This document shows, piece by piece, positions 6,334-61,637 of a stretch of DNA of 64,000 bases. The number at the start of each line of letters is the position of its first letter. Position 1 is the stretch's first letter. The DNA comes from a virus. A program made the translations under genes and the position numbers. The notes under the pieces are model-generated. The model was given only the letters and a program-made list of their open reading frames with translations, ran no database searches and was not told the origin of the DNA. The stretch spans positions 6,173 through 70,172 of the IMG/VR virus record IMGVR_UViG_3300047160_002873; one strand, given 5' to 3'.

Positions 6334-7117
6334 GGATGCTCAGGGGTACTACCAGAGTGTTGAGGATGCGATCAACAAAAGCGCGGCTGTCGCTGGCATG
6401 GACCCGGCACACTGGCGCGCTGTTGCTTCGATCGAAAGCTCGATCAACCCACAGAGCAACCGATATGAGGGCACTCAATTCAAGGGACTGTTTCAGCTTG
6501 GGAACGCAGTGTGGCATGACCATGGCGGGGGCGACATCTACAACCCCATGGACAATGCGATGGCTGCGGCAAGATACGCCCGCGCCAACTCCAACATCTT
6601 CAGGGCCCAGTTTGGCCGCGATCCGACTCCGACCGAGATATACCTGATGCATCAGCAGGGGCCCGGCTTCTACACAAAGGGCACGATGTCCAATATTGCC
6701 GGCAATCCCTATGCGAAGGGCATGGTCGCCTCCGAGCAGACGCCGCAATCATTCGAAGCAGGCTGGTCTAAAAACTTGGAAGCAAAGGCAGCAGCCGGAG
6801 GCGGGACCATCACGCCATATCAGCAGAGCGTGGCCGGCACGAGAGGTGGCGGTGGCGGTATGCCGGCCGGCGCAGCTGCAGGGCCAGCTGCGTCGACCGA
6901 GACCCCTGACGGTGATACAACTGGAGGCCTTGGAGCGGGGCTGGCAGCCGTTCAAGACAGGATCGCAAAACAGGATCAGGCAAACCAACCGCCGCCGCTG
7001 CAGCCGATGCAGATGGCGCAGCCGATGATGACACCCGCGATGTACAGGGCACGATTGATGGCGCAAGCCATGCTCAACAGGGACATGGGTATCACGCCGC
7101 CGGAGACACCATCATGA
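6332..7117 (+). CDS. Virion-associated lytic transglycosylase (SLT domain)
   Basis: AVASIESS catalytic Glu motif, KGLFQL, YNPMDNAMAAARY, YLMHQQG; low-complexity C-terminus. Confidence 0.85.
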   Translation: MDAQGYYQSVEDAINKSAAVAGMDPAHWRAVASIESSINPQSNRYEGTQFKGLFQLGNAVWHDHGGGDIYNPMDNAMAAARYARANSNIFRAQFGRDPTPTEIYLMHQQGPGFYTKGTMSNIAGNPYAKGMVASEQTPQSFEAGWSKNLEAKAAAGGGTITPYQQSVAGTRGGGGGMPAGAAAGPAASTETPDGDTTGGLGAGLAAVQDRIAKQDQANQPPPLQPMQMAQPMMTPAMYRARLMAQAMLNRDMGITPPETPS

Positions 7118-8208
7118 AGCGAACGCTCGGAATACTCGGTCTATTCATCCTGTGTGCTATCGGCGCGCAGGTCGCTGTCGAGGGGGCGAAGGCAGCCTTC
7201 TGGCAGTGGTCGACATCCTCGACCAGTAACGGCAACAGCGACCCGACGATCTCATGGGTCGAAGGAATGCCGCCGTCAGTGGTGAATGACAGCGGGCGAG
7301 CGATGATGGCTCGGCTCGCCGAGCAGGCGGCTGATACATCTGGTCAACTGACGACAGCCGGCGGTCCCGTCGCTTTCACGGTATCGAGCAATCAAGGCTT
7401 CCCCAATCCTCCGCAGAACGGTCAGGTGATTGGGGTGATGTTCAATGTGAACAGCGGAGCAAGCCCTACGCTGTCGGTCGATGGAGGCGCGGCGATCCCG
7501 ATTGACGCAAGCATCGGTACGCCTGCCTCTGTCGGTCCGGGCGCTCCCACTAGCTTGGTCTACAATGCGGCGAATAGTATCTGGCTGATCCGTGGCGGCG
7601 GCGGTGGTGGCACTCCGCTCGGCAGTGTCGTCGCCTATACAGGCACCACGGCGCCGGCAGGCTATGTGTTCGCTGATGGCTCCTGCCTCTCGACTACGAC
7701 CTTTGCGACCTATTGGGTTCTGATCGGCAGTCCGGCACCGGGCGCCTGTGGCGCAGGTCAGTTCAAGATAATCGATCTCCGCGGCTATGTGCTGGCTGGG
7801 CTTGATACCATGCCGGGAGGCAGCCCTGCAGGGCGACTGACGTCGGCTGCGACCGGATGCGGTACGGCAATGACTGTCGTCGGGGCTGCCTGCGCAACGC
7901 ACGAGTCTCATATCATGACTGTTGCGGAGTTGGCGATCCATGATCACTACGCGCCTATCACCGATCCGACGCATACCCATCCTGTTGGCGGCCAGATTGC
8001 CTACATCAGCGGTGTTTCCGGCTATGGTGTCGGCAATGGCGGTGTGCTGGGTCAGTATTACAATTCGGCCATCACTGTCTCCGCTGCTGCGACGGGGGTT
8101 TATGTTAACGGTGCCGCAGCGAACTACACCTCCAACACGGGCAGCAGCACTCCGATGCCTGCGATGGGGCCAACGATCGGCGTGATCTACATCATTCGGG
8201 TGCTGTGA
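7114..8208 (+). CDS. Tail fibre protein with tail-collar domain and N-terminal signal-peptide-like leader
   Basis: PLGSVVAYTGTTAPAGYVFADG...IDLRG collar motif, His-rich HDH/HTH needle, C-terminal YIIRVL; leader MKRTLGILGLFILCAIG...AKA. Confidence 0.8.
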   Translation: MKRTLGILGLFILCAIGAQVAVEGAKAAFWQWSTSSTSNGNSDPTISWVEGMPPSVVNDSGRAMMARLAEQAADTSGQLTTAGGPVAFTVSSNQGFPNPPQNGQVIGVMFNVNSGASPTLSVDGGAAIPIDASIGTPASVGPGAPTSLVYNAANSIWLIRGGGGGGTPLGSVVAYTGTTAPAGYVFADGSCLSTTTFATYWVLIGSPAPGACGAGQFKIIDLRGYVLAGLDTMPGGSPAGRLTSAATGCGTAMTVVGAACATHESHIMTVAELAIHDHYAPITDPTHTHPVGGQIAYISGVSGYGVGNGGVLGQYYNSAITVSAAATGVYVNGAAANYTSNTGSSTPMPAMGPTIGVIYIIRVL

Positions 8209-8498
8209 TGATCATCGAGACAGTGCACGGTCTGCGAAGGACCACTTGGCGTGCGAAACTTATCCGCACCGATCCGGGGCTGGTGATGGCTGCCGGGACT
8301 GTGACGTCAACGAATGTGCAGGATGCCACAAACCAGATAGCGGCCTTGTCGACGACTGCTACGACCAGCGGCACGCTCGTCAATACTAACGTGCAGCTGT
8401 CGATCGATGAACTGATCGCGGCCATCGTAGCTGCAGACATTCCGACTATCGGCACCCACGACCACGATGTGCTGGCTCAGATCGCAGCGGCGCTATAA
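8205..8498 (+). CDS. Hypothetical protein
   Basis: 97 aa ORF overlapping the upstream stop. Confidence 0.55.
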   Translation: MMIIETVHGLRRTTWRAKLIRTDPGLVMAAGTVTSTNVQDATNQIAALSTTATTSGTLVNTNVQLSIDELIAAIVAADIPTIGTHDHDVLAQIAAAL

Positions 8499-8513
8499 AT
8501 AGGAGGTACAGGC

Positions 8514-9551
8514 ATGAAGATAGTGATCAGCTCAGGTCATGGGCTTTACATCAGGGGAGCCTCTGGCCCGGCTCCATGGGGCTTGGACGAGGTCGACGAG
8601 GTCAGAAAAATAGTAGACGATGTAGCGCCCCGGCTCAGAGAGCTTGGCGTCGAAGTAGTTGTCTATCATGACGACGTTAGTGTCGAGCAGAACGAAAATT
8701 TGCACCGCATAGTGGACTACCATAATAACCAAGGGCCTCACGATATAGACTGCTCTGTGCACCTAAACGCGTACGAACCCACGGAAGGGGCCCGCGGTTG
8801 TGAGGTGCTATACGTGACGCAGAACTCTCTCGCTGAAGACCTAGCGGCGACAATGTCGGAGGCGGCGGGCTTCACAAACCGGGGGGCAAAGCACAGGGAC
8901 GATCTCTTCTTCCTGAATCAGTGCTTGGCACCAGCTGTGCTTTTGGAGGTGCTGTTCTGCGATGCCATGGAAGACATCGACTGCTACCACGCCAACTATG
9001 ATGAACTGATCGACGCCATTGCCACTACGCTGGCTGGGCATGACTTTGATGAGGATGAACCCGACGAGAATGAAACCGACCGGGAGGACGAACTTGAGGA
9101 GTTGGAGCTGGGCGGGAGGGTCGGCGAGGTCACTGTCCACGAGGTAGGGAAGTGCAGCCACTTCGGGGGCCCCGAGGACATGGGCGTAGATAGTGACGAA
9201 GGGCTCGCCTTCCACTACGAGGTCACGCCAGAGAATGAGCACCTGTTCCTCCCGGAACAGCCTCCCGGGACTACAGGACTCGCCCGGCGCCTAGACCCGT
9301 CAAGGTTCTACTTTGCCATCCGATTCGACTATGAGCTGACCCCGAAGACGATGCTCGCAGACCCCACGATTCGCGGGCTGGTGAAGGCTCAGAAGACTGG
9401 CAGGATGGCAATGGCATGGCCGGCAGATTGGGGGCCACACGAGGATACCGGCAGAAGCGCAGATATCAGCCCCGGACTGATGGAGTTTTTAGGCATAACC
9501 ACTGACGATATCGTGGAAATTACATACCCTGCGCAAGTGCTGGTCTCATGA
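8514..9551 (+). CDS. Endolysin: N-acetylmuramoyl-L-alanine amidase (Amidase_3) plus C-terminal double-psi beta-barrel-like domain
   Basis: SSGHG, E, SVHLNA and LLEVLF Zn-amidase motifs; acidic linker; ADWGP...ADISP DPBB/RlpA-like motif; AGGAGG RBS. Confidence 0.85.
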   Translation: MKIVISSGHGLYIRGASGPAPWGLDEVDEVRKIVDDVAPRLRELGVEVVVYHDDVSVEQNENLHRIVDYHNNQGPHDIDCSVHLNAYEPTEGARGCEVLYVTQNSLAEDLAATMSEAAGFTNRGAKHRDDLFFLNQCLAPAVLLEVLFCDAMEDIDCYHANYDELIDAIATTLAGHDFDEDEPDENETDREDELEELELGGRVGEVTVHEVGKCSHFGGPEDMGVDSDEGLAFHYEVTPENEHLFLPEQPPGTTGLARRLDPSRFYFAIRFDYELTPKTMLADPTIRGLVKAQKTGRMAMAWPADWGPHEDTGRSADISPGLMEFLGITTDDIVEITYPAQVLVS

Positions 9552-9781
9552 CAAAAATCGTCCTCGCGTTCCTGCTGGCTCACAGCTGGTATCCCAGTGA
9601 ATGCTGCAACGGGGCAGACTGCAGGCCTGTCCCCTGTGATCAGCTCGCAATCGACGGCTCCAGCGCAAAATGGGGCAATGGTCCCGCTCGTCAGCTCCGG
9701 GTCAGCCCTGACGGAGACTGCCATGTCTGCATGCACAATGAAGCGACCCTCTGCATCTTCGTCCCTGAGAAGCTGTCGTAG
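9548..9781 (+). CDS. Small Cys-rich protein (HSWYPxECC motif) with hydrophobic N-terminus
   Basis: 77 aa, 7 Cys, ATGA overlap with the endolysin. Confidence 0.6.
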   Translation: MTKIVLAFLLAHSWYPSECCNGADCRPVPCDQLAIDGSSAKWGNGPARQLRVSPDGDCHVCMHNEATLCIFVPEKLS

Positions 9782-9782
9782 G

Positions 9783-10151: not shown

Positions 10152-10663
10152 GCGCTCTTCCCCGCGTTTTTTTCCAGCTGCTTCGGGGTGACGTCGATGA
10201 GGGTAGCAGCTGCATTGAGCACATCCCACTTCGACTGTTGGAACTCCTTGCGCCCCATGGCGACGACGCTCTGGGACTGGGCGACATATTTGAGGATCAC
10301 CCGGCCGCGGACTACGATCGTCGCCGCGGGGTCGAGAGGAGCCATGAAAGCCGCCACAGTTGCTGCATCACGCACTGTGTCGCAGACCACCTCACTGAGA
10401 TGGAAGTAGCCACACTCCACCAGAAGCTTCTTCCGGAAGATGTCTTCGGTGGGGTACTTGGCATCGAGCTTCTCCGGGAGGTTACGCCACGCCTCTTTCA
10501 GCTGGGCGAAGTAGTGCCGGTGGCTATTCATGTCCCGCTCCTGTTCGGGATCGAGCATGAACACCTCGCCGACACCAAAGAAGTTCTTGCAGTAGTTCAG
10601 ATCGCGGTTCTCCGGCACGAATGACTTTCCGGTCCAGATCGCATGGATGGGGCGCCGGTTCAT
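10148..10663 (-). CDS. NinB/DUF1367-like recombination accessory protein
   Basis: R..SHRHYFA...S.S...M.RKEFQ pattern; lies next to the exonuclease. Confidence 0.5.
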   Translation of the reverse strand: MNRRPIHAIWTGKSFVPENRDLNYCKNFFGVGEVFMLDPEQERDMNSHRHYFAQLKEAWRNLPEKLDAKYPTEDIFRKKLLVECGYFHLSEVVCDTVRDAATVAAFMAPLDPAATIVVRGRVILKYVAQSQSVVAMGRKEFQQSKWDVLNAAATLIDVTPKQLEKNAGKSA

Positions 10664-11274
10664 AGATATGTCCTCAGGTGAGCGACCAGCTGGTCTATCT
10701 CTTGGTTGAAGTAGTCCAATTCACGGCGGAGGTTGGCCATGAAAGGTTCGTCACGCTCGATCCGGGTGACGGACTGTGGCAGCCCGGGAGAGCCGATCAC
10801 GAGATCGCACCACCGCCGGCCAGTGATCCAGAGGCAGCCCTGTATCTGGGCCTTGTGCTCTGACAAGGGGGCCTTCCCGGTTTCGAATATCTCGACCAGC
10901 AGGTCTGGCGCGGTCGACTTCACCTCGACCATACCCTCGGTGCCGACCAGCCCGTCAGGGCTGCAGCCAGTACGCATCAGCGTCGATCGCAGGAAGCCCA
11001 CGGTCTCGACGTTGACGTCGGCATCGAACGCATACTTGGCGCGCAGTACATCTTCCTGCTTTTTGCCACGGTCCATGGCTGCGTTGGTGAACGTCTCCAT
11101 GGTGATGTTGGAGACGATCTCAGCTGCCAGCTGGCGCCGGTACTTGGCGCGCATCTTTCCCTGCCCCTGAGCGAGCATGTCAGGGAATCGACTGGCGGTC
11201 GGGAGGCCACGACGTGCCTCGTGCCACTCGGGGCTGCCCTGCTCGCATTCGATGATCGTGTAGCGTGCTGTCAT
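10660..11274 (-). CDS. YqaJ/lambda-type exonuclease
   Basis: EQGSPEWHEARRGLPTAS, GCSPDGLV, EVKS, QIQGCLW motifs. Confidence 0.9.
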   Translation of the reverse strand: MTARYTIIECEQGSPEWHEARRGLPTASRFPDMLAQGQGKMRAKYRRQLAAEIVSNITMETFTNAAMDRGKKQEDVLRAKYAFDADVNVETVGFLRSTLMRTGCSPDGLVGTEGMVEVKSTAPDLLVEIFETGKAPLSEHKAQIQGCLWITGRRWCDLVIGSPGLPQSVTRIERDEPFMANLRRELDYFNQEIDQLVAHLRTYL

Positions 11275-13345: not shown

Positions 13346-13412
13346 AACACCCTCCCGCGGCTGTTGGGCCTTGGTCGGCCCGCTCGACTATTTTAATTAC
13401 TGCTGGCATCAT
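13146..13412 (-). CDS. Hypothetical phage protein
   Basis: 88 aa; ATGA overlap with erf; C-terminal PLRPDGKPNRPLTAYTV. Confidence 0.6.
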   Translation of the reverse strand: MMPAVIKIVERADQGPTAAGGCFVKSMDFDAHEGRGDLVVTTRRGDAKEFPDAREAMVYWQTISEAVPLRPDGKPNRPLTAYTVSIEP

Positions 13413-14275
13413 TTGAACTCGTTTTTCGGCAGCGGGGTGTCGCCCGGGAAGTCAGACTTCGCCGGCTTTCCCTTCTGCTCCAGTTTGCGGGTCAGCTGCT
13501 CGACAGCCTCATCGAAGCGATCGGCAGGTATCTGCGGGACGGTCTCTGCCTTGAACAGCGCAAGGAAGCGAGCAGTGTCGGCGCCCGATTCGTGGATCAG
13601 CTTGTTGATGGCGAGCACCTGATCCTTGTCGATCAGCATGGAGCCTCGCACCCGGGAGGCGTCGTCATCCTCGCCGCGGGTGACGATGTTCAGCAGCATG
13701 CCGGCAGTGTATCGTTTGCCATAGCTGGTCGTGCTGCCGACAGCCTGCACAGGGTTCTTGGACCCGGTGGAGTCATGCTGCAGGATCATCGTGGTGTCTT
13801 CCCGGTGGCCGGCGCGCGCCAGTATGGCGGTCACCATGATGCGACCGTCCGGAGCCTGCCCGACGCGGAATGAAAGCGAGAAATTGTGCTTGCGCAGCAG
13901 CGGCCTCAAGACATCCATGATGTCTTCCCACTTGGCGAAAGGCGTCTTCTGCTCGATCGGCCCAGTGCGATCACCGGTCTTCGGGTCTTTTCTCCGGATG
14001 ACGATACTGCCCTTCCTATCAATCTCAGGAAGCTCAGCCTGCAGCTGCGCCAAGGCATTGTCGTAACCTATCTTGGCGGCGCGCGCCTCCATGTCAGCCT
14101 GCAGCTGCACCAGCTGCGTCATCTTGGCGACGTCGACGCGCGGGTTCGCCGCGGCTGCCACAATGGCATTGAGTATCTGAGTTGAGGTGTCGAGCACCTC
14201 GACCCTCGGGGCCCTGATCCTGTGGGGCACCAATTCCTGATGCCGTGCTACGGTCTTCGCTGCCCTCTTAGCCAT
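13409..14275 (-). CDS. erf: ERF-family single-strand annealing protein
   Basis: FAKWEDI..LRPLL, QAVGSTTSYGKRY...EDDD ERF signature; paired with the YqaJ exonuclease; GGAGG RBS. Confidence 0.9.
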   Translation of the reverse strand: MAKRAAKTVARHQELVPHRIRAPRVEVLDTSTQILNAIVAAAANPRVDVAKMTQLVQLQADMEARAAKIGYDNALAQLQAELPEIDRKGSIVIRRKDPKTGDRTGPIEQKTPFAKWEDIMDVLRPLLRKHNFSLSFRVGQAPDGRIMVTAILARAGHREDTTMILQHDSTGSKNPVQAVGSTTSYGKRYTAGMLLNIVTRGEDDDASRVRGSMLIDKDQVLAINKLIHESGADTARFLALFKAETVPQIPADRFDEAVEQLTRKLEQKGKPAKSDFPGDTPLPKNEFK

Positions 14276-15826: not shown

Positions 15827-15827
15827 T

Positions 15828-50448: not shown

Positions 50449-52013
50449 ACGAGCCAGTCTCCATTTTGAAGGGAAGCAGCACCTATAAGGAGCTACGGGT
50501 GAAGTTTGCCAACCGCGATCGGCGGATGGACACCCTGTATCAGGTGCTCAATGAGCAGGGGCAGATCGTGCCCTATCGGCGCCGTACGGCGCAGGCAAAG
50601 TATGCAGCCGATCAATGGCTGCTCGACATCATCGTGAAGGCGCGGCAGATCGGGTTCTCGACCGAGATCGCGATCGACATAACCGACCACTGCATCTGGC
50701 GAAAGAACTTCACGGCCGGCATCATCGACTACACGCTCGACGATGCCAAGCTGAAGCTGCAGAAGGTGCGGACCGCCTACATGGGAACCCCGGCCGCGGT
50801 AAGGGAGACTGTGCGCCTCGTGAAGGACAACGAGGAGGAACTGAAATGGTCAAACGGGTCTACGTGTTATGTGGGGACCAGCCACCGCGGTGGGACGCTC
50901 CAGTATTTGCATATATCGGAGTTTGGAAAGATAGCCACGGACAAACCGGACATTGCCCGCGAGATCAAGACGGGCGCTCTGAACACCATCGCACCCGGAC
51001 AAAAGATCAAGGTCGAAAGCACCGCGCACGGCACAAGCGGCCAGTTCTACGACATGGTTCGCATCGCGGAAGCTAAGGCGAAGACAGGCAAGTCTCTATC
51101 CCAGCTGGACTTCAAGCTGCACTTCTTCGCGTGGTGGATGGACCCGAAGTACGTGGTGCAGCCGACCTTGGCTGTCATCACCCGCGAGATGTCGGAATAC
51201 TTCGACGAGCTTCGCGTCAAGCACGGTGTGATCCTCTCGCCAGAGCAGAAGGCATGGTACATCCTGAAGTACGAGACGCTCGGCCGCGACGACATGCACT
51301 CGGAGTTTCCGAGCTGCATGGAGGAGACCTTCTACAACAGCATGGAGGGAACATGGTTCAAGAGAGAGATGCAGAAGATGCGGGAGGAGCACCGGATCGG
51401 CCACAATATCCCGCACGACCCAAATTATCTCGTGAACACGTTCTGGGACATCGGGCTGGAGACCAAGAACAACCAGAACGCAATCTGGTTTCACCAGACG
51501 GACGGGACGCGCCACCGGATCATCGACTACTACGAGAACGCGGGAGAGGGAGTGCAGCATTACGCGAGCAAAGTAAGAGAGATTGGCGTGAAGCGAAACT
51601 TCACTTTCGGGAAGCACTATGGGCCTCACGACATCGCACACCGAAGCTGGGCAAACGACGCGAAGACGCGCAAGGAAATAGCATCGAGCCTCGGGATCGA
51701 GTTCGAGGTGGTGCCGAGAGTGCTGGACAAGGAGGACGCGATCGAGGCCCTGCGCCGCATGTTGAGCCTGACGTGGATCGACGCGGAGCATTGCGGTCGT
51801 TTAGTGGAGTGTCTGGACAATTATCGAAAAGTATGGAGCAGGCAGCTCGCGCAATGGACCGCGGTGCCGCTGCACAACTGGGCAAGCAACGCAGCTGACG
51901 CCGGCATGACCGGCGCTGTAGGAATGAAGCCGGACGGCATCTGGCTCGCTGATGGAAGCAGGAACAAGTCACGCAACGACAAGCGTGTGCGAGGGTCACA
52001 ATGGGCGCAATGA
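50445..52013 (+). CDS. terL: Terminase large subunit
   Basis: KARQIGFST Walker A, LHISE Walker B, ESTAHG coupling motif, FFAWW, WDIG, GPHD, ADA nuclease residues. Confidence 0.92.
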   Translation: MNEPVSILKGSSTYKELRVKFANRDRRMDTLYQVLNEQGQIVPYRRRTAQAKYAADQWLLDIIVKARQIGFSTEIAIDITDHCIWRKNFTAGIIDYTLDDAKLKLQKVRTAYMGTPAAVRETVRLVKDNEEELKWSNGSTCYVGTSHRGGTLQYLHISEFGKIATDKPDIAREIKTGALNTIAPGQKIKVESTAHGTSGQFYDMVRIAEAKAKTGKSLSQLDFKLHFFAWWMDPKYVVQPTLAVITREMSEYFDELRVKHGVILSPEQKAWYILKYETLGRDDMHSEFPSCMEETFYNSMEGTWFKREMQKMREEHRIGHNIPHDPNYLVNTFWDIGLETKNNQNAIWFHQTDGTRHRIIDYYENAGEGVQHYASKVREIGVKRNFTFGKHYGPHDIAHRSWANDAKTRKEIASSLGIEFEVVPRVLDKEDAIEALRRMLSLTWIDAEHCGRLVECLDNYRKVWSRQLAQWTAVPLHNWASNAADAGMTGAVGMKPDGIWLADGSRNKSRNDKRVRGSQWAQ

Positions 52014-52028
52014 GCGTGGAGCAGGTAT

Positions 52029-53103: not shown

Positions 53104-53113
53104 GGGCTGAGCT

Positions 53114-55825
53114 ATGGCGCGCAACGCGGCGATTCTGGAAGATGTCGACTATTCGGATGTGACGCCCGGTGCGGAAAGCGACGGGGCATCTAGCTCAGAT
53201 GAGACCGATCGCAGAGCGCAGATACCCCTGTCGAAGAAGACCCCGCAGCAGCAATGGCGCATCCTCAAGGGCAACATTCAATCCGACCTCGAATATTCGC
53301 TGAAGTGGCGCAAGCAGGCGACCGATGACCTCGGGTTCGTCTCCGGCGACCAGTGGTCCGACGAGGACAAGCAGATACTGGATGAGCAGGGGCGACCACA
53401 CAACGTCTTCAACCGCATCGAGACCATCCTCCGCGCCATTGCCGGCATGGAGATCAACGGTCGGCACGAGATTAACTTCCTCCCACGAAACAATGATGAC
53501 ACGGCCAAGAACGAGCTGCTGACGGCGGTTTCGAAATGGATGGGTGATGGCTGCGATGCGGAGGATGAGCAATCAGAGGCATTCCAGCAGGCTCTTGGCA
53601 CTGGCTTGGGTGTTTCGGAAGCGCGCTATTCGTACGAGAACGAGGCCGAGGGCTCGTATATCGAAGAGCAAATCGACAGCAGAGAGTTCGTCTGGGATCG
53701 GACCGCACGCAAAAAGAACCTCCGGGATGCCCGACGCATGGGACGACTGCGGCGAATGCCGCTGATCGACGCCCTGCAGATGTTTCCCGGCAAGACGCGA
53801 CGGGACATAGACGCGCAGTGGGCCAACCAGAACTACCTTGACGAAGCGACACTCAAGTCGATCGAGGAGAAGCGCATCCGTGATGAAAACACGGCGCTGT
53901 GGGAGGACTACGACGACCGCAACGAAGTGACAGTGGTCGTGATCCAATGGAGGGAGAAGGAATCGTACTGGCGGGTCGCTGATATCGCCACCAATACGGT
54001 GAAGGAGTACGACAATGACCAGTACAAGATGATCTCTGCCCGCATGAACCAGATTGGCAGTAAGGTCGGGGCTATGGCCAGCCTTCACGCACGGCAGGCC
54101 TATCGGTGGCGCTACTATCAGGCGTTCCTCGGTGCCAATGCGCTGCTCGACAAGGTGCAGCCGGCGCCATGCGGCAACCAGTTCTCGTGGGGCGTCATCA
54201 CAGGCGCCTTCGATGCCAAAAAGAGGCAGTGGTATGGCCTCGTGCGCGTGATGCGCGATCCGCAGCAATGGGCAAACAAGTTCCTGTCCCAGATCATGCA
54301 GATCATGAACAGCACCGCAAAGGGAGGCATTCTCGCCGAGGCTGACGCGTTCGACGATCAGCGGCAGGCGGAAGAGACCTATGCGATGCCGGAGGCGATC
54401 ACATGGATGACGCCCGGCTCGCTATCCGGACAGAAGCCAAAGGTGATACCGAAGCCCGGACAGGGCGACGCTAGCGCCTACGTCAATCTGCTGACCTATG
54501 CTGTCCAGTCGATTACCGCGGTGACTGGCATCAATCTCGAACTGCTCGGGCAGCAGGACAAGGACCAGCCGGGCATCGTTGAGCACATGCGCAAGCAGGC
54601 CGGCATGACAGTGCTGGCGACGATGTTCGACAGCCTGCGTGGCTTCCTCAAGATGATCGGCCGCAAGAGGCTCTACTTCATCCAGACGCGTATCCCGGAC
54701 GGCACGATGGTTCGCGTGGCGGGCGGCGAATATGCGCAGGTGGTGCAGGTCACCAAGGACAAGACGACGGGCAACTACGACGTGGTTGTCGACGACGCCC
54801 CGACCAGCCCCAACATGAAGGAGGCCAACTGGGCTGTCATGCAGCCAATGCTGACAGCGTTCAAGGATCAGTTCCTGCAAGACCCGCAGCTGATGATCCT
54901 TGCGCTGGAATATTCGCCGCTCCCCTCGGCCTTTGTCGACGCCATGAAGAAGGCGATGGTCAAGTCCCAGATGGGCGATCCGGGTCAGCAGCAGTGGCAG
55001 GAGACGATGAAGCAGCTGGCAATTTCCAAACTCACCGCGGAGATCAACAAGGATCAGAGTATCGCGGAGATGAACAATGCAAAGGCCGGCGCAACTAACT
55101 CGACCGCCACGTACGATTTGGCAATGGCTCAAAATCTTCTGGCTAAGAATGATATCGAGGGATTCCAGCACCATATTCAGGCCATGTCCGAAGCCGCGAA
55201 AGCCGAGCTAAACAAGGCGAAGGCGGCGCAGACGATCGTCTCGACCCACAAGGACATGCAGCAGACCAACATCGATCACCAGCAGCACGTCAGCGATATG
55301 CTGACTGACGCGACCGATCGCGCCGCGACCCGGCATCAGGCGGCTGTCGACACCCATGGCGTGATGATCGATCACCACAAGGCGCTGACTGACCGCATCC
55401 AAGCCCACCTCACGGCGCGGCAGCAGCAGCTTGACATGATGAATATGCAGGCGGATCGGGACCACGAGGCTCAGCAGGGTCAGGCCGATCGCGAGCACGA
55501 AGCCCAGCAGGGACAGGCGGATCGGGATCAGCAGAACAACGAGATGGTCGGGGATCAGGCGCTGCAGGCGATCAAGATGGGCGGCGATCAGGGGCTGCAG
55601 GCTCAGGCGCAGGTCGGCGATCAGAGGCTCCGGTCGCAGGAGTTGAACCAGAACCGGGAGGCTGGGGCGGCCGATCGCGAGCTAAAGGCCGGCGACCAGC
55701 GACTGAAGGCGCAGCAGCTGCGGCAGACCGACGAGCATAACCGGCGCCAGAGCGAGATCGCTCGGTACACCGCGGTGACCGGCGCTCAGCAGGCGGCAGC
55801 GCGAGACTCGGAGAAGAAGAAGTGA
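53114..55825 (+). CDS. Portal protein (P22-like) with long C-terminal coiled-coil extension
   Basis: F.SGDQW, GRP...FNRI, YGLVR.MRDPQ...NK, G.YDV.VD..P.SP; follows terL. Confidence 0.9.
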   Translation: MARNAAILEDVDYSDVTPGAESDGASSSDETDRRAQIPLSKKTPQQQWRILKGNIQSDLEYSLKWRKQATDDLGFVSGDQWSDEDKQILDEQGRPHNVFNRIETILRAIAGMEINGRHEINFLPRNNDDTAKNELLTAVSKWMGDGCDAEDEQSEAFQQALGTGLGVSEARYSYENEAEGSYIEEQIDSREFVWDRTARKKNLRDARRMGRLRRMPLIDALQMFPGKTRRDIDAQWANQNYLDEATLKSIEEKRIRDENTALWEDYDDRNEVTVVVIQWREKESYWRVADIATNTVKEYDNDQYKMISARMNQIGSKVGAMASLHARQAYRWRYYQAFLGANALLDKVQPAPCGNQFSWGVITGAFDAKKRQWYGLVRVMRDPQQWANKFLSQIMQIMNSTAKGGILAEADAFDDQRQAEETYAMPEAITWMTPGSLSGQKPKVIPKPGQGDASAYVNLLTYAVQSITAVTGINLELLGQQDKDQPGIVEHMRKQAGMTVLATMFDSLRGFLKMIGRKRLYFIQTRIPDGTMVRVAGGEYAQVVQVTKDKTTGNYDVVVDDAPTSPNMKEANWAVMQPMLTAFKDQFLQDPQLMILALEYSPLPSAFVDAMKKAMVKSQMGDPGQQQWQETMKQLAISKLTAEINKDQSIAEMNNAKAGATNSTATYDLAMAQNLLAKNDIEGFQHHIQAMSEAAKAELNKAKAAQTIVSTHKDMQQTNIDHQQHVSDMLTDATDRAATRHQAAVDTHGVMIDHHKALTDRIQAHLTARQQQLDMMNMQADRDHEAQQGQADREHEAQQGQADRDQQNNEMVGDQALQAIKMGGDQGLQAQAQVGDQRLRSQELNQNREAGAADRELKAGDQRLKAQQLRQTDEHNRRQSEIARYTAVTGAQQAAARDSEKKK

Positions 55826-56196
55826 TACGCGAGCGGATGGCACTGTTGAGGCAGGCGCAGGAATACTTCCACGCGCTGCTCCTTGGCGTCGTTAACTGGG
55901 ATGATGTCAGGGTCGACAAAGCGGTCCCGATCCCCCCGGTTAAGGGGAACCGGGACCAAGGCAAGGAGCGGGACATTGTATCGGCCAGCTTCAACGGCTT
56001 CCGGATGGAGCTGCTTGGCCCGTTCGAGAACGAGCACTGGCCGCTCGGGTGTGTCAAGGTCAGCCGTGGTGGACATTCGTTCTCCGGACCGCTGGACGCA
56101 CTAACGTGGGTGTATGTCGCTAACTTTATTCGCGAGCACAAACCCGAGGGAGACGACGATGGCAGGATTGCAGGTGGAGAGGATTGGGGACGTTGA
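55822..56196 (+). CDS. Hypothetical protein
   Basis: GTGA-coupled ORF between portal and scaffold. Confidence 0.5.
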   Translation: MIRERMALLRQAQEYFHALLLGVVNWDDVRVDKAVPIPPVKGNRDQGKERDIVSASFNGFRMELLGPFENEHWPLGCVKVSRGGHSFSGPLDALTWVYVANFIREHKPEGDDDGRIAGGEDWGR

Positions 56197-57430
56197 CGAA
56201 GGCGAGCCGCCCGTCCCCTCCGAGGTCGATGAGTTTGGTTTGACGCCAGACGAGCGGGCTGCCTTCGACGGCATGAAGGACGCCGATAAAGGCCTCCCGG
56301 AGGCCCCTGAGGAGCCTGAGGAGGCGCCCGCGCCGGCCCCCGCCCCCGAGGAGCCCAAGCAGAAACTGGACGCACCACCGGCGCCGCCAAAGAAGGTGGA
56401 GGCCCCTGAGGAGGACGACGAGCCCGATCAGGTAACGCGCGACCCCCGCACGGGCAAAGAGCAGCGCACGATCTCCTACGGTAAGCACCAGCGGCTTTTG
56501 AAGAAGGCGCGGGAGGATGCGGAGGCGCTCCGGGCCCAAGCTGAGGAGGGGCGGATCAACCATGCCAAGCTCACGGAACGGCTGGCGATCCTGAATGATG
56601 CCCTGACAGCGCCTCCGCCACCGCCGCAGCTGACCCCGCAGGAGCAGGAACAGCAGCGCCGGCAGGAAGCCCTGCAGAACCCGATGCTGGAGGACACGAT
56701 CGATCCCTCGATCGATCTGGCCGGCTCGATCGCGCAGATGCAGCGCCGGCAAATATTCATGGCGCAAGCCAATATGTACCAGCAGGAGGCCACGCAGGAG
56801 CAGCTGGCTGACCAGCAGATGGTCCGGGACTTCACCCGGGACGCCGAGATGTTCTCGCGATCCGAGGAGGGTCAGCACTTTTTCGGCGATGCTGGCGCCT
56901 ACCAGTTCCTGAAGAACAGCCGGCTGTGCGAGCTTGCCTATCGCATGTTCCGCAAAGACCCCACCAATGTGAACGATAAGTTCACCCAGAAAGAGATCAA
57001 TCAGCTGGTGTCGTCCTATAACGAGGAGGAGCGAGACCTCGTTGGCGATGCCCTGCAGAACGGTGTAAGCCCGTCACAAACGATCATGTGGTACGCAAAA
57101 GGGCGCGGCTGGCGACCGCCGCAGCCCGCGGCTCCGCCACCCGCACCTCCTCCGGCCCCTGCGTCTGCACGCAAGTCGCCACTGGCGCCTCCGGCGGCTG
57201 TGCCTCCCCCACAACCCTCCAACAGCGCGGTGGCGAGGATACAGTCGGAGACAGCCGGCGCGGCAGCATCGCGCTCCCTGTCTGATGGTGGCGGTGTGCC
57301 GCCAGCCGAGCCGCTCTCGATCGAGCAGCTGCTCAAAATGGATGATGAAGAGTTCGGAGTGTATATTGATAACCTGCCTCCGCAGCGTCTGCAGTCGCTG
57401 ATGGGGCGAGACTTCCCGACGCGTCATTAG
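56159..57430 (+). CDS. Capsid scaffolding protein
   Basis: Acidic Pro-rich N-terminus, coiled coil, Y.KGRGW, C-terminal EQLLKMDDEEF helix; between portal and capsid. Confidence 0.75.
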   Translation: MAGLQVERIGDVDEGEPPVPSEVDEFGLTPDERAAFDGMKDADKGLPEAPEEPEEAPAPAPAPEEPKQKLDAPPAPPKKVEAPEEDDEPDQVTRDPRTGKEQRTISYGKHQRLLKKAREDAEALRAQAEEGRINHAKLTERLAILNDALTAPPPPPQLTPQEQEQQRRQEALQNPMLEDTIDPSIDLAGSIAQMQRRQIFMAQANMYQQEATQEQLADQQMVRDFTRDAEMFSRSEEGQHFFGDAGAYQFLKNSRLCELAYRMFRKDPTNVNDKFTQKEINQLVSSYNEEERDLVGDALQNGVSPSQTIMWYAKGRGWRPPQPAAPPPAPPPAPASARKSPLAPPAAVPPPQPSNSAVARIQSETAGAAASRSLSDGGGVPPAEPLSIEQLLKMDDEEFGVYIDNLPPQRLQSLMGRDFPTRH

Positions 57431-57441
57431 GAAAGACCGAC

Positions 57442-57681
57442 ATGAAGGCAATTTTCATCGCTTTATTTGGGGCCGGACTGTTAATTGCTGCGCCAGCGAA
57501 GGCGCAGGATCAACGGCCACCACCCGCGCCTGTTTCACCGGGCTTCACCACGGGTGATTGGGGGGTGTCACGCCGGGTAGAGCGGAGGGAGGCGCGCCGG
57601 GACTGGCGTCACCGCGACCGCTACAACCGATATCAGACCCGGCGGAATGATTTGAATCAGAGGTATCAACATCGCCAGTAG
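57442..57681 (+). CDS. Small secreted Arg-rich peptide
   Basis: Signal peptide ending AKA; Arg-rich mature part. Confidence 0.55.
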   Translation: MKAIFIALFGAGLLIAAPAKAQDQRPPPAPVSPGFTTGDWGVSRRVERREARRDWRHRDRYNRYQTRRNDLNQRYQHRQ

Positions 57682-57690
57682 GAGGCTCAA

Positions 57691-57933
57691 ATGAGCTGTT
57701 TAAGTCTCGGGTTTGTAGAGCAATTGCTGGTCTGGCTGATTATCGTCGTCGCGGTCGTCGCAGTGATCAAGCTGCTTATTCCATTCCTAGACGGCCTCAC
57801 AGGCTTTCCCATTGTCGGGCAGATCATCTCCATCCTGCTCTGGGCGATAGTGGCGATCATGATCCTCTATGTGATCTTTGGCCTGCTCAGCTGCTTGGTA
57901 GGTTCCGGGCCCGGCTTGCACCTGCCCCGGTGA
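57691..57933 (+). CDS. Small two-TM membrane protein (holin candidate)
   Basis: Two long hydrophobic helices; AGGAGG RBS. Confidence 0.65.
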   Translation: MSCLSLGFVEQLLVWLIIVVAVVAVIKLLIPFLDGLTGFPIVGQIISILLWAIVAIMILYVIFGLLSCLVGSGPGLHLPR

Positions 57934-57945
57934 TGGAGGCGTGTC

Positions 57946-58068
57946 ATGGCCGCACGGATAGCCATTGCGATCCTGCTTTCGCTTTTGATCTTCCTTCCCA
58001 TTCTGAAAGGCCGGTCGGGGTATTTTAGCCACGACCTGACCTTTTACAGCCAGAACGACTATCCGTGA
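57946..58068 (+). CDS. 40 aa single-TM peptide
   Basis: MAARIAIAILLSLLIFLPILKGRSGYFSHDLTFYSQNDYP; GGAGG RBS. Confidence 0.5.
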   Translation: MAARIAIAILLSLLIFLPILKGRSGYFSHDLTFYSQNDYP

Positions 58069-58267
58069 TGCTGGCTTGCATCCGAAAGCCCATTGAGATA
58101 AAAAGGTCACACGCCTCGGGGATCGGCGCTTAAATTTCCCCCACCTCTAGGGCTACCGGTCAAGCCCTCCCGCCCAGCAGGGGGCGTTTAAGCAATCTGC
58201 ACCCACGCATATCGCAGCATGTGCCACGGCGCCGCTATGGCGCCGGGCGCGACCGCAGGGGTGCCCC

Positions 58268-59380
58268 ATGGCGACCACTTCCTATCCCGTCAACGACGCT
58301 ATGGCCGTCAAGCTATGGTCGCGCGTCCTTGATTACGAAGCGCTGAAATATACGGCGATTGCGCCGCTGATCGGCGATGACGAGAACTCCATCATCCACA
58401 TGCAGGATGCGCTGTCGAAGGGCCCGGGTGACGCAATCACCTATGCGATCGTCATGCAGCTTGCACAGGCTGGCTTTTCCGAGAACCAGCTGGCGGAAGG
58501 CAACGGTGAGGCGCTGACGACCTACAGCGATCAGCTTGTGATCAATGAGCTGATGGCGGTGGCCGGCGTCAAATCGAGGCGCACGATCGACCAGCAACGC
58601 GTCCCGTGGGACTTGCGGAACACGGCGAAGGGGCGGCTGGGTGACTGGTACGCCAAACGCTATTCGGTGGCGTTCTTCAATCAGGTCTGTGGCTATTCGG
58701 TGCAGACCGACGTGCGCTACACCGGTCTCAATCCGGTGACGGCTCCATCTACCGGCCGCATTATCCGGCAGTCGAACCGGGCCTCAGATGATCTTCTGGT
58801 GGCTGGCGACACCTTCACCCTCGACATGATCGACAAGGCAAAGGAAGCGGCAATCACCGCTACGCCGATGATTCGTCCGATCAGGATCAAGGGCAACTCG
58901 CCGCGCAGCAACGGGCGCAGCGACTACAACAACACGCTGGAGGATATGTATTGCGCGTACCTCCATCCCTATCAAGTCACGGCCATGCGCCGCAACACCT
59001 CGACCGGTCAATTCATCGATCTGCAGAAGGCGGCCTCGATGGGCCGGCAGGACACCGGCAACCGCATCTTCTCCGGTGCGATCGGCGTCTACAACGCAAC
59101 CATCATGCGCTCGGCATTCGACGTGACGGATGGCGTCTCTGCAGCTGGCGCCGATGTGCCGACTGTGAGGCGAGCCATCTTCCTCGGAGGACAGGCTGCG
59201 ATGATGGGCTTCGGACGGGACAACGGACCGTCGAAGCTGACATGGAATGAGGAACTGTTTGACCACAAGCGGCGCCTCGAAATTTCGGCACTGACGATCC
59301 ACGGGCTGAAGAAGACGCGCTACAATAACATCGACTATGGCACTATCGTCATGTCGACCTACGCGCAGCCTGCGACCTGA
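58268..59380 (+). CDS. Major capsid protein (N4-gp56/DUF4043-like)
   Basis: AVKLWS, LSKGPGD.IT, AEGN.E.L....DQL.IN, DLR..AK..L.DW, GAIG.YN, RAIFLG.QA, G.KKTR...D.G.I. Confidence 0.9.
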   Translation: MATTSYPVNDAMAVKLWSRVLDYEALKYTAIAPLIGDDENSIIHMQDALSKGPGDAITYAIVMQLAQAGFSENQLAEGNGEALTTYSDQLVINELMAVAGVKSRRTIDQQRVPWDLRNTAKGRLGDWYAKRYSVAFFNQVCGYSVQTDVRYTGLNPVTAPSTGRIIRQSNRASDDLLVAGDTFTLDMIDKAKEAAITATPMIRPIRIKGNSPRSNGRSDYNNTLEDMYCAYLHPYQVTAMRRNTSTGQFIDLQKAASMGRQDTGNRIFSGAIGVYNATIMRSAFDVTDGVSAAGADVPTVRRAIFLGGQAAMMGFGRDNGPSKLTWNEELFDHKRRLEISALTIHGLKKTRYNNIDYGTIVMSTYAQPAT

Positions 59381-59392
59381 GGAGGATGTAAC

Positions 59393-59812
59393 ATGCCCAC
59401 TGGTGTTCTCGGCACGGCTGCCCGGCAAGACCCGCGGCAAGTCTCCAATACGCTGAAGAAGACGGTCAACTGGAACGATGCGGCGACGGGTGTCCCCGTT
59501 CCCTTTGCGAACTATCTGCCGCAGGGTGCCTTCATCCTCAACGTCTGGATCGAGGTGGTGGTCGCCTTCAACGGCACCACGCCCACGCTCACGGTCGGCA
59601 CCAATGCCGCGAGCTATAACAATATCGTGGCGGCTGGCGATGCGACATGGACGGGCACTGTCATTCCCGCCATCACCCAAGGCCGGGGACTCGGCCGGTC
59701 CCTTACCGCGGCGGGCGACGTGCTGCCCTATGCGGTATGGAACGCGACTGGTTCGCCGTCAGCAGGACAGGCCATCTTCGTCATCGAGTTCGAGGGCGGA
59801 TGGCAGTCGTAA
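59393..59812 (+). CDS. Capsid decoration/cement-like protein
   Basis: LP.GA.I......V..AFNG..PTLTVG...G.A...IEF fold directly after the capsid gene. Confidence 0.65.
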   Translation: MPTGVLGTAARQDPRQVSNTLKKTVNWNDAATGVPVPFANYLPQGAFILNVWIEVVVAFNGTTPTLTVGTNAASYNNIVAAGDATWTGTVIPAITQGRGLGRSLTAAGDVLPYAVWNATGSPSAGQAIFVIEFEGGWQS

Positions 59813-59829
59813 CCTCCCTAGACTTGGGC

Positions 59830-59859
59830 CGGGCGGCCGACCCCGCCCGACCTCTTTTT
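59830..59859 (+). terminator. Rho-independent terminator after the capsid/decoration genes
   Basis: CGGGCGG/CCGCCCG stem followed by CTCTTTTT. Confidence 0.55.
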
Positions 59860-59873
59860 GCGAGGGTGAGACC

Positions 59874-60362
59874 ATGAAGCGCTTTCTAAACTCGGCGGCA
59901 TCCGGCGCGATCTTTGCGCTGGCAGCGCTGGCTACAGCGGCGATGGCACTCCAGATCGCCGGTCGCGATTCGGGGCAGAGCCGGAATATCTTCCAAGTCG
60001 GAATGGCGGCGATCTCGACCGACCTTGGTGTCACCGCGACACCTTCCGGCACGCAGGCCAACTCTTACCAGATCACCGCGGGCTTCACGCTCGTGACGAC
60101 GGTGGCGACGATCGGCGATGGTGTGAAGATGCCCTCGATCACGAATATCGGGGCTCCATCAAACCTTGATACTTCGCTCAATGTCATTGTCGTCAACAAC
60201 ACAGCCAACTCGATGAACGTCTTTCCGTTCTTGGCAACGGATGTCATTGTCAGCAATGGCACTGCAGCTGGTGCGGGGGCTGCACTGGCGGTGCCAGCAT
60301 TGAAGAATGCGGACTGCTGGTCCGCGACATCGACGGGTCGTTGGTATTGCACAGTCGGTTAG
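59874..60362 (+). CDS. Virion fibre-tip-like beta protein with signal peptide
   Basis: Start ATG 59874; leader MKRFLN...AMA; VTTVAT.GDGV.MP...V.NN.ANSM.VFP...W; 2 Cys. Confidence 0.65.
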   Translation: MKRFLNSAASGAIFALAALATAAMALQIAGRDSGQSRNIFQVGMAAISTDLGVTATPSGTQANSYQITAGFTLVTTVATIGDGVKMPSITNIGAPSNLDTSLNVIVVNNTANSMNVFPFLATDVIVSNGTAAGAGAALAVPALKNADCWSATSTGRWYCTVG

Positions 60363-60401
60363 CGCGGTTCGGCCGCGGTTACCGCGGAGGAGGCGCGAAC
60401 C

Positions 60402-61637
60402 ATGCGAACACTACTCACTGCTGCCCTTTTCTCCCTATTGTTGATCGGCGGGGCTCAGGCCCAGACTCCAGCCCCTCGGGTCGTCAACCCACCCTGCAAT
60501 GCTCCCTGCACGCAGCAGCAGCTACTGCAGGATGTTCAGAACCAATTCCCTGACAACACAGCCGGCGCCATCACGCCGGCCATCATGCGTACGTTCTTCA
60601 ACAACCAGCTTAACTCCATGATGGCGGCATCTCCGCTCGTGGCTGGCCAGCTGGTGTGCTGGAATGGCACGACCGGCCTGCCCGGTACCTGCTCTGGCGC
60701 AGTCAGCATTCCCCAAGGCGGCACTGGCGCAGTCTCGCAGGGTGGTGCGGCAATCAACATCTTCCCGACCGCGATCCGGGCGGGCGACATTGCCTACTGG
60801 AGCGGTGCCAACTGGGTCACGCTCACTGGCAACAACACTGGCACACAGCTATTGTCCGAGAACGCCTCGGGCGTGCCGTCATGGGTACCGGCGGTCAACT
60901 TCCCGGTCGCCACACGGGTCGGGGACATCATCTACTGGAGCGGGACGTCATGGGTCACCCTTGCGGGCAACAACGCCGGCAATGTGATCCTGTCGGAGAA
61001 TGCGTCTGGCGCTCCGACGTGGCTGGCTTCAGGCAATGCAGCATCGACGGTAGTGCTGCCGGCACCTACCCGGGCTGGCGACATGCCTTACTGGAACGGG
61101 ACGGCATGGACGACGATCGCCGGCAATAACACTGGCACGCAGTTCCTGTCACAGAATGGGTCTGGCGTGCCGGCGTGGGGCAATATTACTGCGGTGACAT
61201 CCGTCACCTGCGGCACTGGCCTGTCCGGCGGCACGATCACCGCGACTGGCACCTGTGCGGTCAATATCAGCAATTTCACCAACTCTTTGGCCGCTGATCA
61301 GCCGCTCAATGTCATCGGCAATTATTTCCCCGGCCCAAGCGTGGCACAAGGTACGACGGGGACATGGTGGGCCGCTGGAACGGTGACACTGAGCGACACG
61401 GCGGCGGCGACGTTTTACTGCAAGCTGTGGGATACCGGCGCCATCATCATGGCGAGCGGCGTCGCGCAGATCACGGCAGCAGGCAACACCACCATGAGTT
61501 TGGCCGGGTATGTTTCGTCTCCGGCGGGCAACATCACGATCAGCTGCCGGGATATCACGACTGCCAATGGCAATATACGGTTTAATATCAGCGGCAATTC
61601 CCGTGACAGCACGCTGAACGTGATGAGAATACAGTGA
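60402..61637 (+). CDS. Head/tail fibre protein with signal peptide and three GDxxYWxG repeats
   Basis: Leader ending AQA; FPDNTAGAITPA, SIPQGGTGA, repeats RAGDIAYWSG.NW..L.GNN.G...LS.N.SG.P.W, GTGLSGGTIT..GT; 8 Cys. Confidence 0.75.
   Translation: MRTLLTAALFSLLLIGGAQAQTPAPRVVNPPCNAPCTQQQLLQDVQNQFPDNTAGAITPAIMRTFFNNQLNSMMAASPLVAGQLVCWNGTTGLPGTCSGAVSIPQGGTGAVSQGGAAINIFPTAIRAGDIAYWSGANWVTLTGNNTGTQLLSENASGVPSWVPAVNFPVATRVGDIIYWSGTSWVTLAGNNAGNVILSENASGAPTWLASGNAASTVVLPAPTRAGDMPYWNGTAWTTIAGNNTGTQFLSQNGSGVPAWGNITAVTSVTCGTGLSGGTITATGTCAVNISNFTNSLAADQPLNVIGNYFPGPSVAQGTTGTWWAAGTVTLSDTAAATFYCKLWDTGAIIMASGVAQITAAGNTTMSLAGYVSSPAGNITISCRDITTANGNIRFNISGNSRDSTLNVMRIQ

Follow-up and report, generated by a model that had tools for sequence, protein, structure and literature searches.

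Fibre-type proteins with predicted Sec leaders and conserved cysteine pairs in an uncultured soil podophage

Assembly of tailed phages is held to take place wholly in the reducing cytoplasm, where T7 gp17 and P22 gp9 fold and assemble without a signal peptide. The late genes of an uncultured, short-tailed phage (podophage) from soil raise the question of whether fibre-type proteins can leave the cytoplasm and, if they do, whether they still become part of the particle. We analyzed bases 6173-70172 of the 70,172-bp IMG/VR record IMGVR_UViG_3300047160_002873, which CheckV rates as complete. This stretch of 64,000 nucleotides is hereafter called the window, and positions refer to it unless stated otherwise. 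Three genes are at issue (Table 1): the collar fibre P0001 and the neighbouring genes P0002 and P0003, located 3' of the capsid gene. A preliminary description had interpreted their products as virion fibres that are exported, oxidized by the host and docked onto particles at or after lysis, or else released as receptor decoys. Our comparisons bear out the part of this interpretation that concerns the leaders, which are conserved export-type signals and go together with cysteine pairs in homologs. The three fibre-type proteins are thus very probably exported (Sec, signal peptidase I type) and disulfide-bonded.

The coordinates and translations of the three genes proved exact (364, 162 and 411 amino acids (aa) for P0001, P0002 and P0003, respectively), and each product starts with the basic, hydrophobic and AxA elements attributed to it. 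Leader MKRTLGILGLFILCAIGAQVAVEGAKA of P0001 is predicted to be cut before AFWQW, MKRFLNSAASGAIFALAALATAAMA of P0002 before LQIAG, and MRTLLTAALFSLLLIGGAQA of P0003 before QTPAP. A crude Sec rule, which asks for a net positive start and for small residues at -3 and -1 and scores the best hydrophobic window of 10 residues, picked out all three, with window scores of 3.16, 2.35 and 2.49 and net charges of +2, +2 and +1; the candidate cleavage sites include A-K-A, A-M-A and A-Q-A. The mature parts contain 4, 2 and 8 cysteines arranged in the pair motifs described before, and P0001 has a further cysteine, Cys14, within its leader. A lipoprotein signal for signal peptidase II was rejected, as none of the three leaders contains a lipobox and Cys14 follows I-L and is not conserved. 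In the P0003 relatives with ...LSVCEVHAQA, a lipobox was likewise rejected, with V at -1 and an A-x-A site further downstream. A Tat signal was also discarded, as none of the leaders has an RR motif.

An artefact of gene calling, with true starts downstream and leaders that are never translated, is very improbable. The open frame around P0002 is longer than the gene (59478-60362), with a further ATG in frame at codon 24 of P0002, and P0003 has a TTG at codon 13. However, Met24 of P0002 is not conserved, and Shine-Dalgarno-like sequences precede both 59874 (GAGGGTGAG) and 60402 (GGAGGAGG). The ATG of P0001 overlaps the stop of the upstream gene as ATGA, and there is no ATG, GTG or TTG between codon 1 and the conserved W30 of its N-terminal domain. 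Furthermore, dozens of homologs retain the leaders at the protein level despite differences in DNA sequence. The annotated starts are therefore credible.

Leaders and cysteines are both scarce among the other structural proteins of the phage. Capsid and portal proteins have no leader, as had been reported, and the same is true of the 257-aa and 1086-aa proteins and of the products of the large genes at 31-48 kb. The large structural proteins encoded by the late genes are almost free of cysteine: the 1410-, 363-, 174-, 861-, 261- and 139-aa proteins have none, and the portal, capsid, 438-aa and 257-aa proteins have one or two.

Comparison of leader presence with cysteine pairs among homologs, a test suggested in the preliminary description, was positive in three families. 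The collar-fibre family set comprised 93 sequences (the query, 90 matches from the collection and 2 from GenBank phages). The conserved Trp is preceded by at least 15 residues in 74 of them and by 1-5 in 12; the remaining 7 are N-terminal fragments. All four cysteines are present in 72 of the 74 leader-bearing fibres vs none of the 12 leaderless ones. This pattern extended to a tree of 153 mature fibres, restricted to sequences with a complete N-terminus and a VNDS.RAM-type motif and to locus open reading frames (ORFs) with at least 280 aa after the Trp (L032 is among the sequences left out). Leader-bearing fibres have 4 (45 sequences), 6 (26) or 2 (2) cysteines, an even number in 73 out of 73, whereas the 80 leaderless fibres have 0 (18), 1 (42), 2 (14), 3 (4) or 4 (2). 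The loop of the collar domain that the first pair staples has been rebuilt: leaderless fibres have a ...YG.GDGSTTF.LPDLRG loop where P0001 has the cysteine-stapled ...APG.C..G.F.IIDLRG.

The same association was observed in the two other families. Among 102 distinct P0002-family members, counted as distinct C-terminal stretches of 120 residues from ORFs with a complete C-terminus, 49 have both leader and pair, 45 have neither, and 8 are discordant (3 of them fragments). The crude Sec rule passed 100 of the 120 listed relatives of P0003; the other 20 include 5 without an initial Met (P0034 is also fragment-like), 3 borderline cases and 11 leaderless full-length proteins. Leader-like members of this family have 4-14 cysteines (median 7, n = 100), or 1.8 per 100 residues, vs 0-4 (median 2, n = 11), or 0.54 per 100 residues, for the leaderless full-length ones. 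P0003 itself has cysteines at positions 32, 36, 86, 97, 270, 285, 340 and 382, the last two in its terminal jelly roll. In the first 63 of the 120 listed proteins, partners tend to be kept or lost jointly: both cysteines of 270/285 are present in 28, neither in 29 and a single one in 3, and for 340/382 the counts are 48, 8 and 1. The two N-terminal pairs behave in the same way among close relatives. Two leaderless prophage fibres from the Bradyrhizobium genus share the P0003 tip with 50% and 40% identity and lack the 340/382 pair. The one with the longer alignment (L184) also lacks 270/285, and one of the two is encoded in a plain terminase-portal-capsid-fibre module (L183). Conversely, a leader-bearing P0003 relative of 176 aa keeps all four cysteines. 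Cysteine parity in this family, counted after a cut at the first candidate site (67 even, 33 odd), was not used given cysteines within leaders and uncertain cleavage sites.

Judged by profiles and gene order, P0001 is a tail-fibre homolog and the positional ortholog of the tail fibre of its group. It is matched by PHROG tail families at 2.6e-7 to 4.5e-3, and its family profile matches the solved tail fibres 9b45 gp47 (2.5e-9) and 8kec (8.5e-5). The gene is single-copy, with no paralog in the genome, and is syntenic with the annotated tail fibres of ppBeUSDA76-2, Mae-JY35 and RHph_Y1_10 (L010-L012) and with those at most of 80 genome loci, many of them Bradyrhizobium prophages. Among bacterial genomes taken one per species, Bradyrhizobium prophages commonly encode the fibre, nearly always in leaderless form; the only leader-bearing fibres in that set (L013, L014, L015 and L032) are all on metagenome-bin contigs. 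Leaderless collar fibres are exemplified by those of Bradyrhizobium phage ppBeUSDA76-2 (WAX24428.1, 'tail fiber protein'), Microcystis phage Mae-JY35 (XAI96525.1), Rhizobium phage RHph_Y1_10 and Bradyrhizobium prophages. They share with P0001 an N-terminal domain (W.W...N..AD..I.W.EG..PS.VNDS.RAMMA), a shaft, a collar domain and a place after the ejection and transglycosylase genes. Unlike P0001, they start 3-5 residues before the conserved Trp and have 0-4 cysteines, mostly 0-1. The gene order also resembles that of T7 (capsid, adaptor, nozzle, internal proteins and fibre), which would put P0001 at the place of the T7 tail fibre gene (gp17). As for T7 gp17 and P22 gp9, the fibre gene comes last, after adaptor, nozzle and internal-core-like genes. 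Those two proteins are likewise modular, binding the particle with their N-terminal part and receptors with their distal part, and are added late in assembly. No sequence similarity to either of them was noted, and no search aimed at it was made.

Collar-fibre leaders vary in sequence and are constant in build, and all end right before [AS]-[FLVIY]-W-x-W; in homologs, the same build appears as ...GAGPAGA followed by A-L-W-Q-W or as ...PAYS followed by A-F-W. Leaderless relatives start with M-x-(x)-F/L-W/Y-x-W. Cleavage of P0001 after A-K-A, as predicted, would put two residues ahead of the first conserved Trp, the same number as in these relatives. Since the leader sits exactly ahead of the native N-terminus, cleavage would restore that N-terminus. 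The N-terminal domain (residues 28-75) is also the best-conserved part of the fibre. Its identity is 66.7% within the leader clade, vs 45.8% and 47.1% elsewhere in the fibre, and 58% between the leader and leaderless clades, vs 36% and 32% elsewhere. The same domain heads fibres with very different distal parts, such as P0212-P0214 with an Mtd-like domain. Conservation of this kind is what would be expected of a particle-docking module.

Given the conserved leaders, the even cysteine counts, the co-varying pairs and the cysteine-poor cytoplasmic relatives, export with oxidative folding is the simplest reading of these observations. The three proteins would be carried by Sec into the periplasm of a two-membrane host, probably Bradyrhizobium-like to judge from the relatives of the phage, and would acquire periplasmic disulfides there, two pairs in the collar fibre, one in P0002 and four in P0003. 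The collar fibre would still be the tail fibre of the phage, and would meet the cytoplasm-built particle only once holin and endolysin merge the compartments, or in the lysate. P0002 and P0003 would be exported fibre-tip-like proteins, acting as late-added decorations or outside the particle. In P22, spikes can be added late to finished heads in vitro, and in lambda, the large holin lesions would mix the compartments before the outer membrane breaks. Docking of the collar fibre after export, at lysis, is favored because P0001 is the sole fibre ortholog, keeps the N-terminal module as its most constrained part, and would regain the native N-terminus on cleavage. We regard this step as nearly balanced, falling just short of probable. 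More tentatively still, two-compartment morphogenesis may be at work across a lineage of 60-70-kb soil podophages whose infectivity would depend on host secretion and Dsb functions.

Several points weigh against this reading. As there is about one origin per family, the covariation is no statistical proof: on the 153-fibre tree, the leader needs three changes and each cysteine pair one, and a sign test is powerless with only three independent contrasts of leader vs pairs. The case rests on recurrence of the same association in three unrelated families and on joint partner loss within the P0003 family. Two leader-bearing fibres (P0184 and L015) are devoid of the standard pairs, and four leader-bearing relatives of P0002 have no pair. 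The Pfam Collar domain (PF07484) scores 23.9 bits on P0001 vs a cut-off of 24, which the relatives P0147 (24.4) and P0090 (42.9) pass. The docking role of the N-terminal domain is deduced from modular architecture. Furthermore, we identified no holin next to the endolysin, so that the compartment-merging step has no assigned gene; two small multi-helix ORFs lie away from the endolysin (28494-28706 and 57691-57933). The phage also encodes leaderless candidate receptor-binding proteins, namely an S74 fibre (29-1120) and a 1355-aa Laminin_G_3 protein, and the collar fibre could thus have been freed for another use. Finally, the hydrophobic stretch of P0002 is about 20 residues long (helix 2-23), which makes an uncleaved anchor possible for this protein.

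That the segments of all three proteins are uncleaved anchors or amphipathic helices, and that the products are membrane or cytoplasmic proteins with metal-binding or reduced cysteines, is unlikely. Such an explanation would fit the long, Ala-rich segment of P0002, which is modelled as a single helix, the abundance of Ala, Leu and Val codons in high-GC genomes, and the unusually long and charged c-region of the collar-fibre leader (QVAVEGAKA). However, in all three segments a basic n-region and a hydrophobic core are combined with small residues at -3 and -1, and the same build recurs in homologs of different sequence. Even counts in every leader-bearing fibre, along with joint loss of partners, suit disulfides better than metal sites, and cytoplasmic relatives in all three families have neither leader nor pairs.

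The 162-aa form of P0002, with MKR and a hydrophobic stretch, is strongly conserved in its family, and the N-terminal segment may be either a cleaved signal or a signal anchor. Two cysteines lie near the C-terminus (...DCW...WYC). The model (predicted local distance difference test (pLDDT) 77.4) consists of an N-terminal helix (2-23), a linker and a beta-sandwich, and the latter matches a phage tailspike C-terminal domain with a VIA Z of 10.9 and a root-mean-square deviation of 2.0 over 86 residues. The top six VIA matches (Z 10.9, 9.1, 9.0, 8.4, 8.2 and 7.4) are all parts of phage spikes or fibres, and the next rows drop to 5.9 and 4.0; the matched parts are C-terminal or branching domains of tailspikes and a capsid spike. 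Leaderless sandwiches of the same type occur as free proteins of 115-130 aa and at the C-terminus of fibres of 823-1916 aa (L167, L169 and L171). Profile searches of PDB sequences with P0002 and P0003 returned nothing of use, and Pfam, NCBIfam and PADLOC assigned no family to P0002, P0003 or the small leader-bearing ORFs.

The model of P0003 (mean pLDDT 66.9, about 90 for residues 289-411) combines a repeat shaft with a TNF/C1q-like jelly roll. Foldseek matches of this tip in PDB are C1QL and other C1q-like domains, Caprin-2 C1q, the N-terminal lectin domain of Burkholderia cenocepacia BC2L-C (BC2L-C-nt), PLTL, chlamydial Pgp3 and the lambda central fibre. Target TM-scores range from 0.52 to 0.69 across C1QL, BC2L-C-nt, Caprin-2 C1q and PLTL, with E-values of 5.8e-5 to 3e-4 and TM-scores of 0.55-0.69 for BC2L-C and C1q-type domains, and BFVD matches are tail-fibre-like viral proteins. 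In the model, the tip fold thus resembles the BC2L-C lectin, C1q-like domains, Pgp3 and the central fibre formed by lambda gpJ, at a sequence identity to TNF/C1q-like heads of just 9-16%.

Of 121 genomes sampled from the genus of a Bradyrhizobium strain, 8 have P0003-family genes, which indicates that these are accessory rather than core cellular genes. A tblastn search of the phage collection with P0003 gave no match, five Bradyrhizobium genomes gave none at 1e-5, and a first scan of genome contigs with the P0003 alignment gave 112 pattern matches of which none was confirmed. Two cassettes in the Bradyrhizobium genus (L185, 8282-11912; L182, 8352-10864) encode one or two leader-bearing, cysteine-rich fibre-like proteins (up to 21 cysteines in 729 aa) next to cysteine-free genes of about 165 and 712-729 aa, and no capsid genes were seen within 20 kb.

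Gene order around the capsid gene gives P0002 and P0003 a different standing. Contigs from soil metagenomes with an 88-96% identical capsid protein keep the order capsid, 139 aa, P0002, P0003, 257 aa and 1086 aa, and divergence is far faster in P0002 (52-78% identity) and P0003 (53-62%) than in the capsid protein. P0003 is absent in L098 and L107, and a second copy of P0002 takes its place in L106 and L114. Complete records with capsid identities of 80% and 77% still have a P0002-like gene in the slot. P0002 is core to the lineage and P0003 accessory. The record with 80% capsid identity (L009; 65,245 bp, with terminal repeats) also encodes a leader-bearing collar fibre. Between that fibre and the lysis genes lies a 957-aa spike-like protein (3574-6447) with a Sec-like leader and a P0003-type tip, followed by an M15 endolysin, a two-helix small protein and a lipoprotein. 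In distant relatives with leaderless fibres, the slot is occupied by HNH and small ORFs (RHph_Y1_10) or by a 58-aa ORF (Mae-JY35). The designation of P0002 and P0003 as virion fibres in the preliminary description thus agrees with their fibre-tip-like folds and sits less well with a variable slot that can hold an HNH gene or small ORFs. A megablast search of the phage collection with 53114-64000 gave no match.

These observations bear on the main alternative, in which the three proteins are exported and never enter the particle, and serve as fibre-derived receptor masks, decoys, exclusion or sensing proteins, or lectin-like adhesins. As periplasmic or released proteins, they would bind sugars or receptors of the host envelope; masked receptors might be those on debris and neighbouring cells, and superinfecting phages might be excluded or sensed. 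We consider it a serious possibility, if less probable than not. It suits P0003 best, as a variable, accessory and lectin-like protein, and may suit P0002 too: their slot holds unrelated genes in RHph_Y1_10 and Mae-JY35, P0003 can be missing or replaced by a second P0002, and the sequences of both change much more quickly than that of the capsid gene. In fold, the P0003 tip is similar to trimeric TNF-like lectins (PLTL and the N-terminal domain of BC2L-C) and to the secreted chlamydial Pgp3, and some genes of its family are found in cassettes that have no obvious capsid gene within 20 kb (L182 and L185). Exported accessory proteins of phages are, moreover, well known. T5 Llp, Cor, lambda Lom and Bor, T4 RI, Imm and Sp, spanins and signal-arrest-release (SAR) endolysins all bear signals and act in the envelope; none of these exported proteins of tailed phages is known to be a tail-fibre homolog or a part of the particle. 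Exported phage-fibre-like trimers also occur on a bacterial surface, as described for the mosaic adhesive trimer (MAT) fibres of Bdellovibrio (PMC10769870). Conversely, P0001 has no second copy, and leaderless relatives retain this gene at the tail-fibre position; the N-terminal domain of P0001 is under the strongest constraint, and its leader ends exactly at the native N-terminus. The three genes also lie within the late structural operon and have no promoter-like site of their own. None of them encodes a lipobox, and PADLOC assigned no family to 9 proteins, a weak argument given that this bacterial-defence library is poor in phage-borne exclusion genes.

We found no sigma-70-like promoter site upstream of P0002, and a terminator-like hairpin separates it from the 139-aa gene, so P0002 and P0003 would be expressed by read-through of this hairpin, at a lower level than the capsid gene.

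Disulfide-bonded proteins that are exported and then enter a particle are known from filamentous phages, whose pIII and pVIII do so during assembly at the membrane. Filamentous phages are unrelated to the window phage. Full-text searches of the literature, with results screened by title and abstract, revealed no account of tail fibres exported by Sec in tailed phages. Among published systems that we met, the closest parallel is provided by the MAT fibres of Bdellovibrio bacteriovorus, which are phage-tail-fibre-like trimers with a signal peptide, located outside the cytoplasm (PMC10769870). They show that export of such fibres and folding outside the cytoplasm are feasible. Unlike the window proteins, MAT fibres belong to the cell itself, a predatory bacterium, and are not encoded in a phage structural operon; a family-specific beta-rich domain of about 130 aa follows right after the signal peptide, and an S74 chaperone is present in many of them (PMC10769870). 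The three window proteins have no such chaperone.

If the collar fibre does join the particle after export, completion of the virion would require host Sec and Dsb functions and hinge on the mode of lysis, and disulfide-stabilized folds that suit life in soil would be open to the fibres. A periplasmic step would then have to be considered in work on the host range, engineering and in-vitro assembly of such phages. If the proteins act outside the particle, they would form a new class of fibre-derived exported phage factors, such as receptor masks, decoys or lectins. In either case, the pattern is widespread in uncultured soil phages, with dozens of homologs.

Table 1. Positions of the three fibre-type genes, their parts and neighbouring late features in the window.
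Feature	Position	Strand	Remarks
Transglycosylase-like gene	6332..7117	+	Stop overlaps fibre start (ATGA)
Collar fibre P0001	7114..8208	+	364 aa
P0001, predicted leader	7114-7194		Residues 1-27
P0001, predicted mature part			From AFWQW; 4 Cys, 191/212 and 249/260
97-aa ORF	8205..8498	+	Leaderless; GTG start overlaps fibre stop; no family found
Amidase_3 endolysin	8514..9551	+	Directly 3' of fibre block
Large terminase	50445-52013	+	
P22-like portal	53114-55825	+	Followed by 438-aa gene and two small envelope-type ORFs
79-aa protein	57442..57681	+	Sec-like leader (...AAPAKA then QDQ), very basic tail; between 438-aa and capsid genes; no family
Major capsid protein (PF13252)	58268-59380	+	
139-aa gene	59393..59812	+	3' of capsid gene; left border of P0002/P0003 slot
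Terminator-like hairpin	59830..59849	+	G+C-rich, then T run; between 139-aa gene and P0002
P0002	59874..60362	+	162 aa
P0002, basic/hydrophobic segment	59874-59948		Residues 1-25
P0002, remainder			Linker of ~20 residues; spike-type beta-sandwich 47-162
P0003	60402..61637	+	411 aa
P0003, predicted leader	60402-60461		Residues 1-20
P0003, remainder			N-terminal region with two Cys pairs; 3-4 ...GD..YW.G..W..L.GN... repeats; jelly roll ~289-411
257-aa gene, phrog_19385	61634..62407	+	Right border of slot; kept in RHph_Y1_10 and Mae-JY35
1086-aa virion structural protein, phrog_3287	62412..64000 (first 529 codons) and record bases 1-1672	+	

The window has a G+C content of 54-65% and no tRNA gene, and every late gene is on the + strand. 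The ORF that starts at window position 62412 crosses the end of the record and stops at record base 1672, giving the 1086-aa protein. Because the record is cut inside this structural gene, the genome is circular or circularly permuted and the record ends are arbitrary; a search of the record for terminal repeats of 20-2000 bases found none. The 1086-aa gene is followed, in order, by a 1410-aa gene, the S74-type fibre and ejection-like genes of 174, 669 and 861 aa. A lysozyme or transglycosylase gene followed by the fibre gene is the same pair in relatives. The 97-aa ORF located just after the collar fibre may encode a fibre partner that stays in the cytoplasm. By eye, it shares ...T..NVQDA..Q.A... 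with a 141-aa ORF that follows the leader-bearing fibre of L009 (3168-3593).

Among the 50 window ORFs scanned against Pfam, which are part of the ORF set, there was no Dsb-like or signal-peptidase gene, and no integrase was found among the window ORFs sent to Pfam. A YqaJ-like exonuclease (10660-11274) and an ERF-family annealing protein (13409-14275), both on the minus strand, form a recombination pair.

The three genes named in the preliminary description are real leader-bearing genes, yet the list was incomplete, as the crude rule detected four more leader-like starts (57442-57681, 23364-24260, 24262-24618 and 9548-9781). The first encodes the 79-aa protein located upstream of the capsid gene; an 80-aa ORF close by (57691-57933) consists almost entirely of hydrophobic helices (3-4 segments) and has no family. 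The tandem early or middle genes 23364-24260 (MKKLLLGASYLVLSTTTVLAG...) and 24262-24618 (MRKLYLATAALLLFAGSAQAG...) have exported-type starts and Gly/Ala/Ser-rich products with no family, the former with 6 cysteines. The 77-aa ORF at 9548-9781 starts within the last bases of the amidase gene; its product is hydrophobic at the N-terminus, contains 7 cysteines and could be a lysis accessory protein, perhaps spanin-like. The 1355-aa Laminin_G_3 protein (43871-47938) has 14 cysteines and no leader, and as such is an exception among cysteine-rich late proteins, which otherwise carry leaders. In the block of large genes at 31-48 kb, a 232-aa protein with 9 cysteines (40868-41566) has a weak CxxCxxCC match (PF03692, 21.4 bits vs a cut-off of 23).

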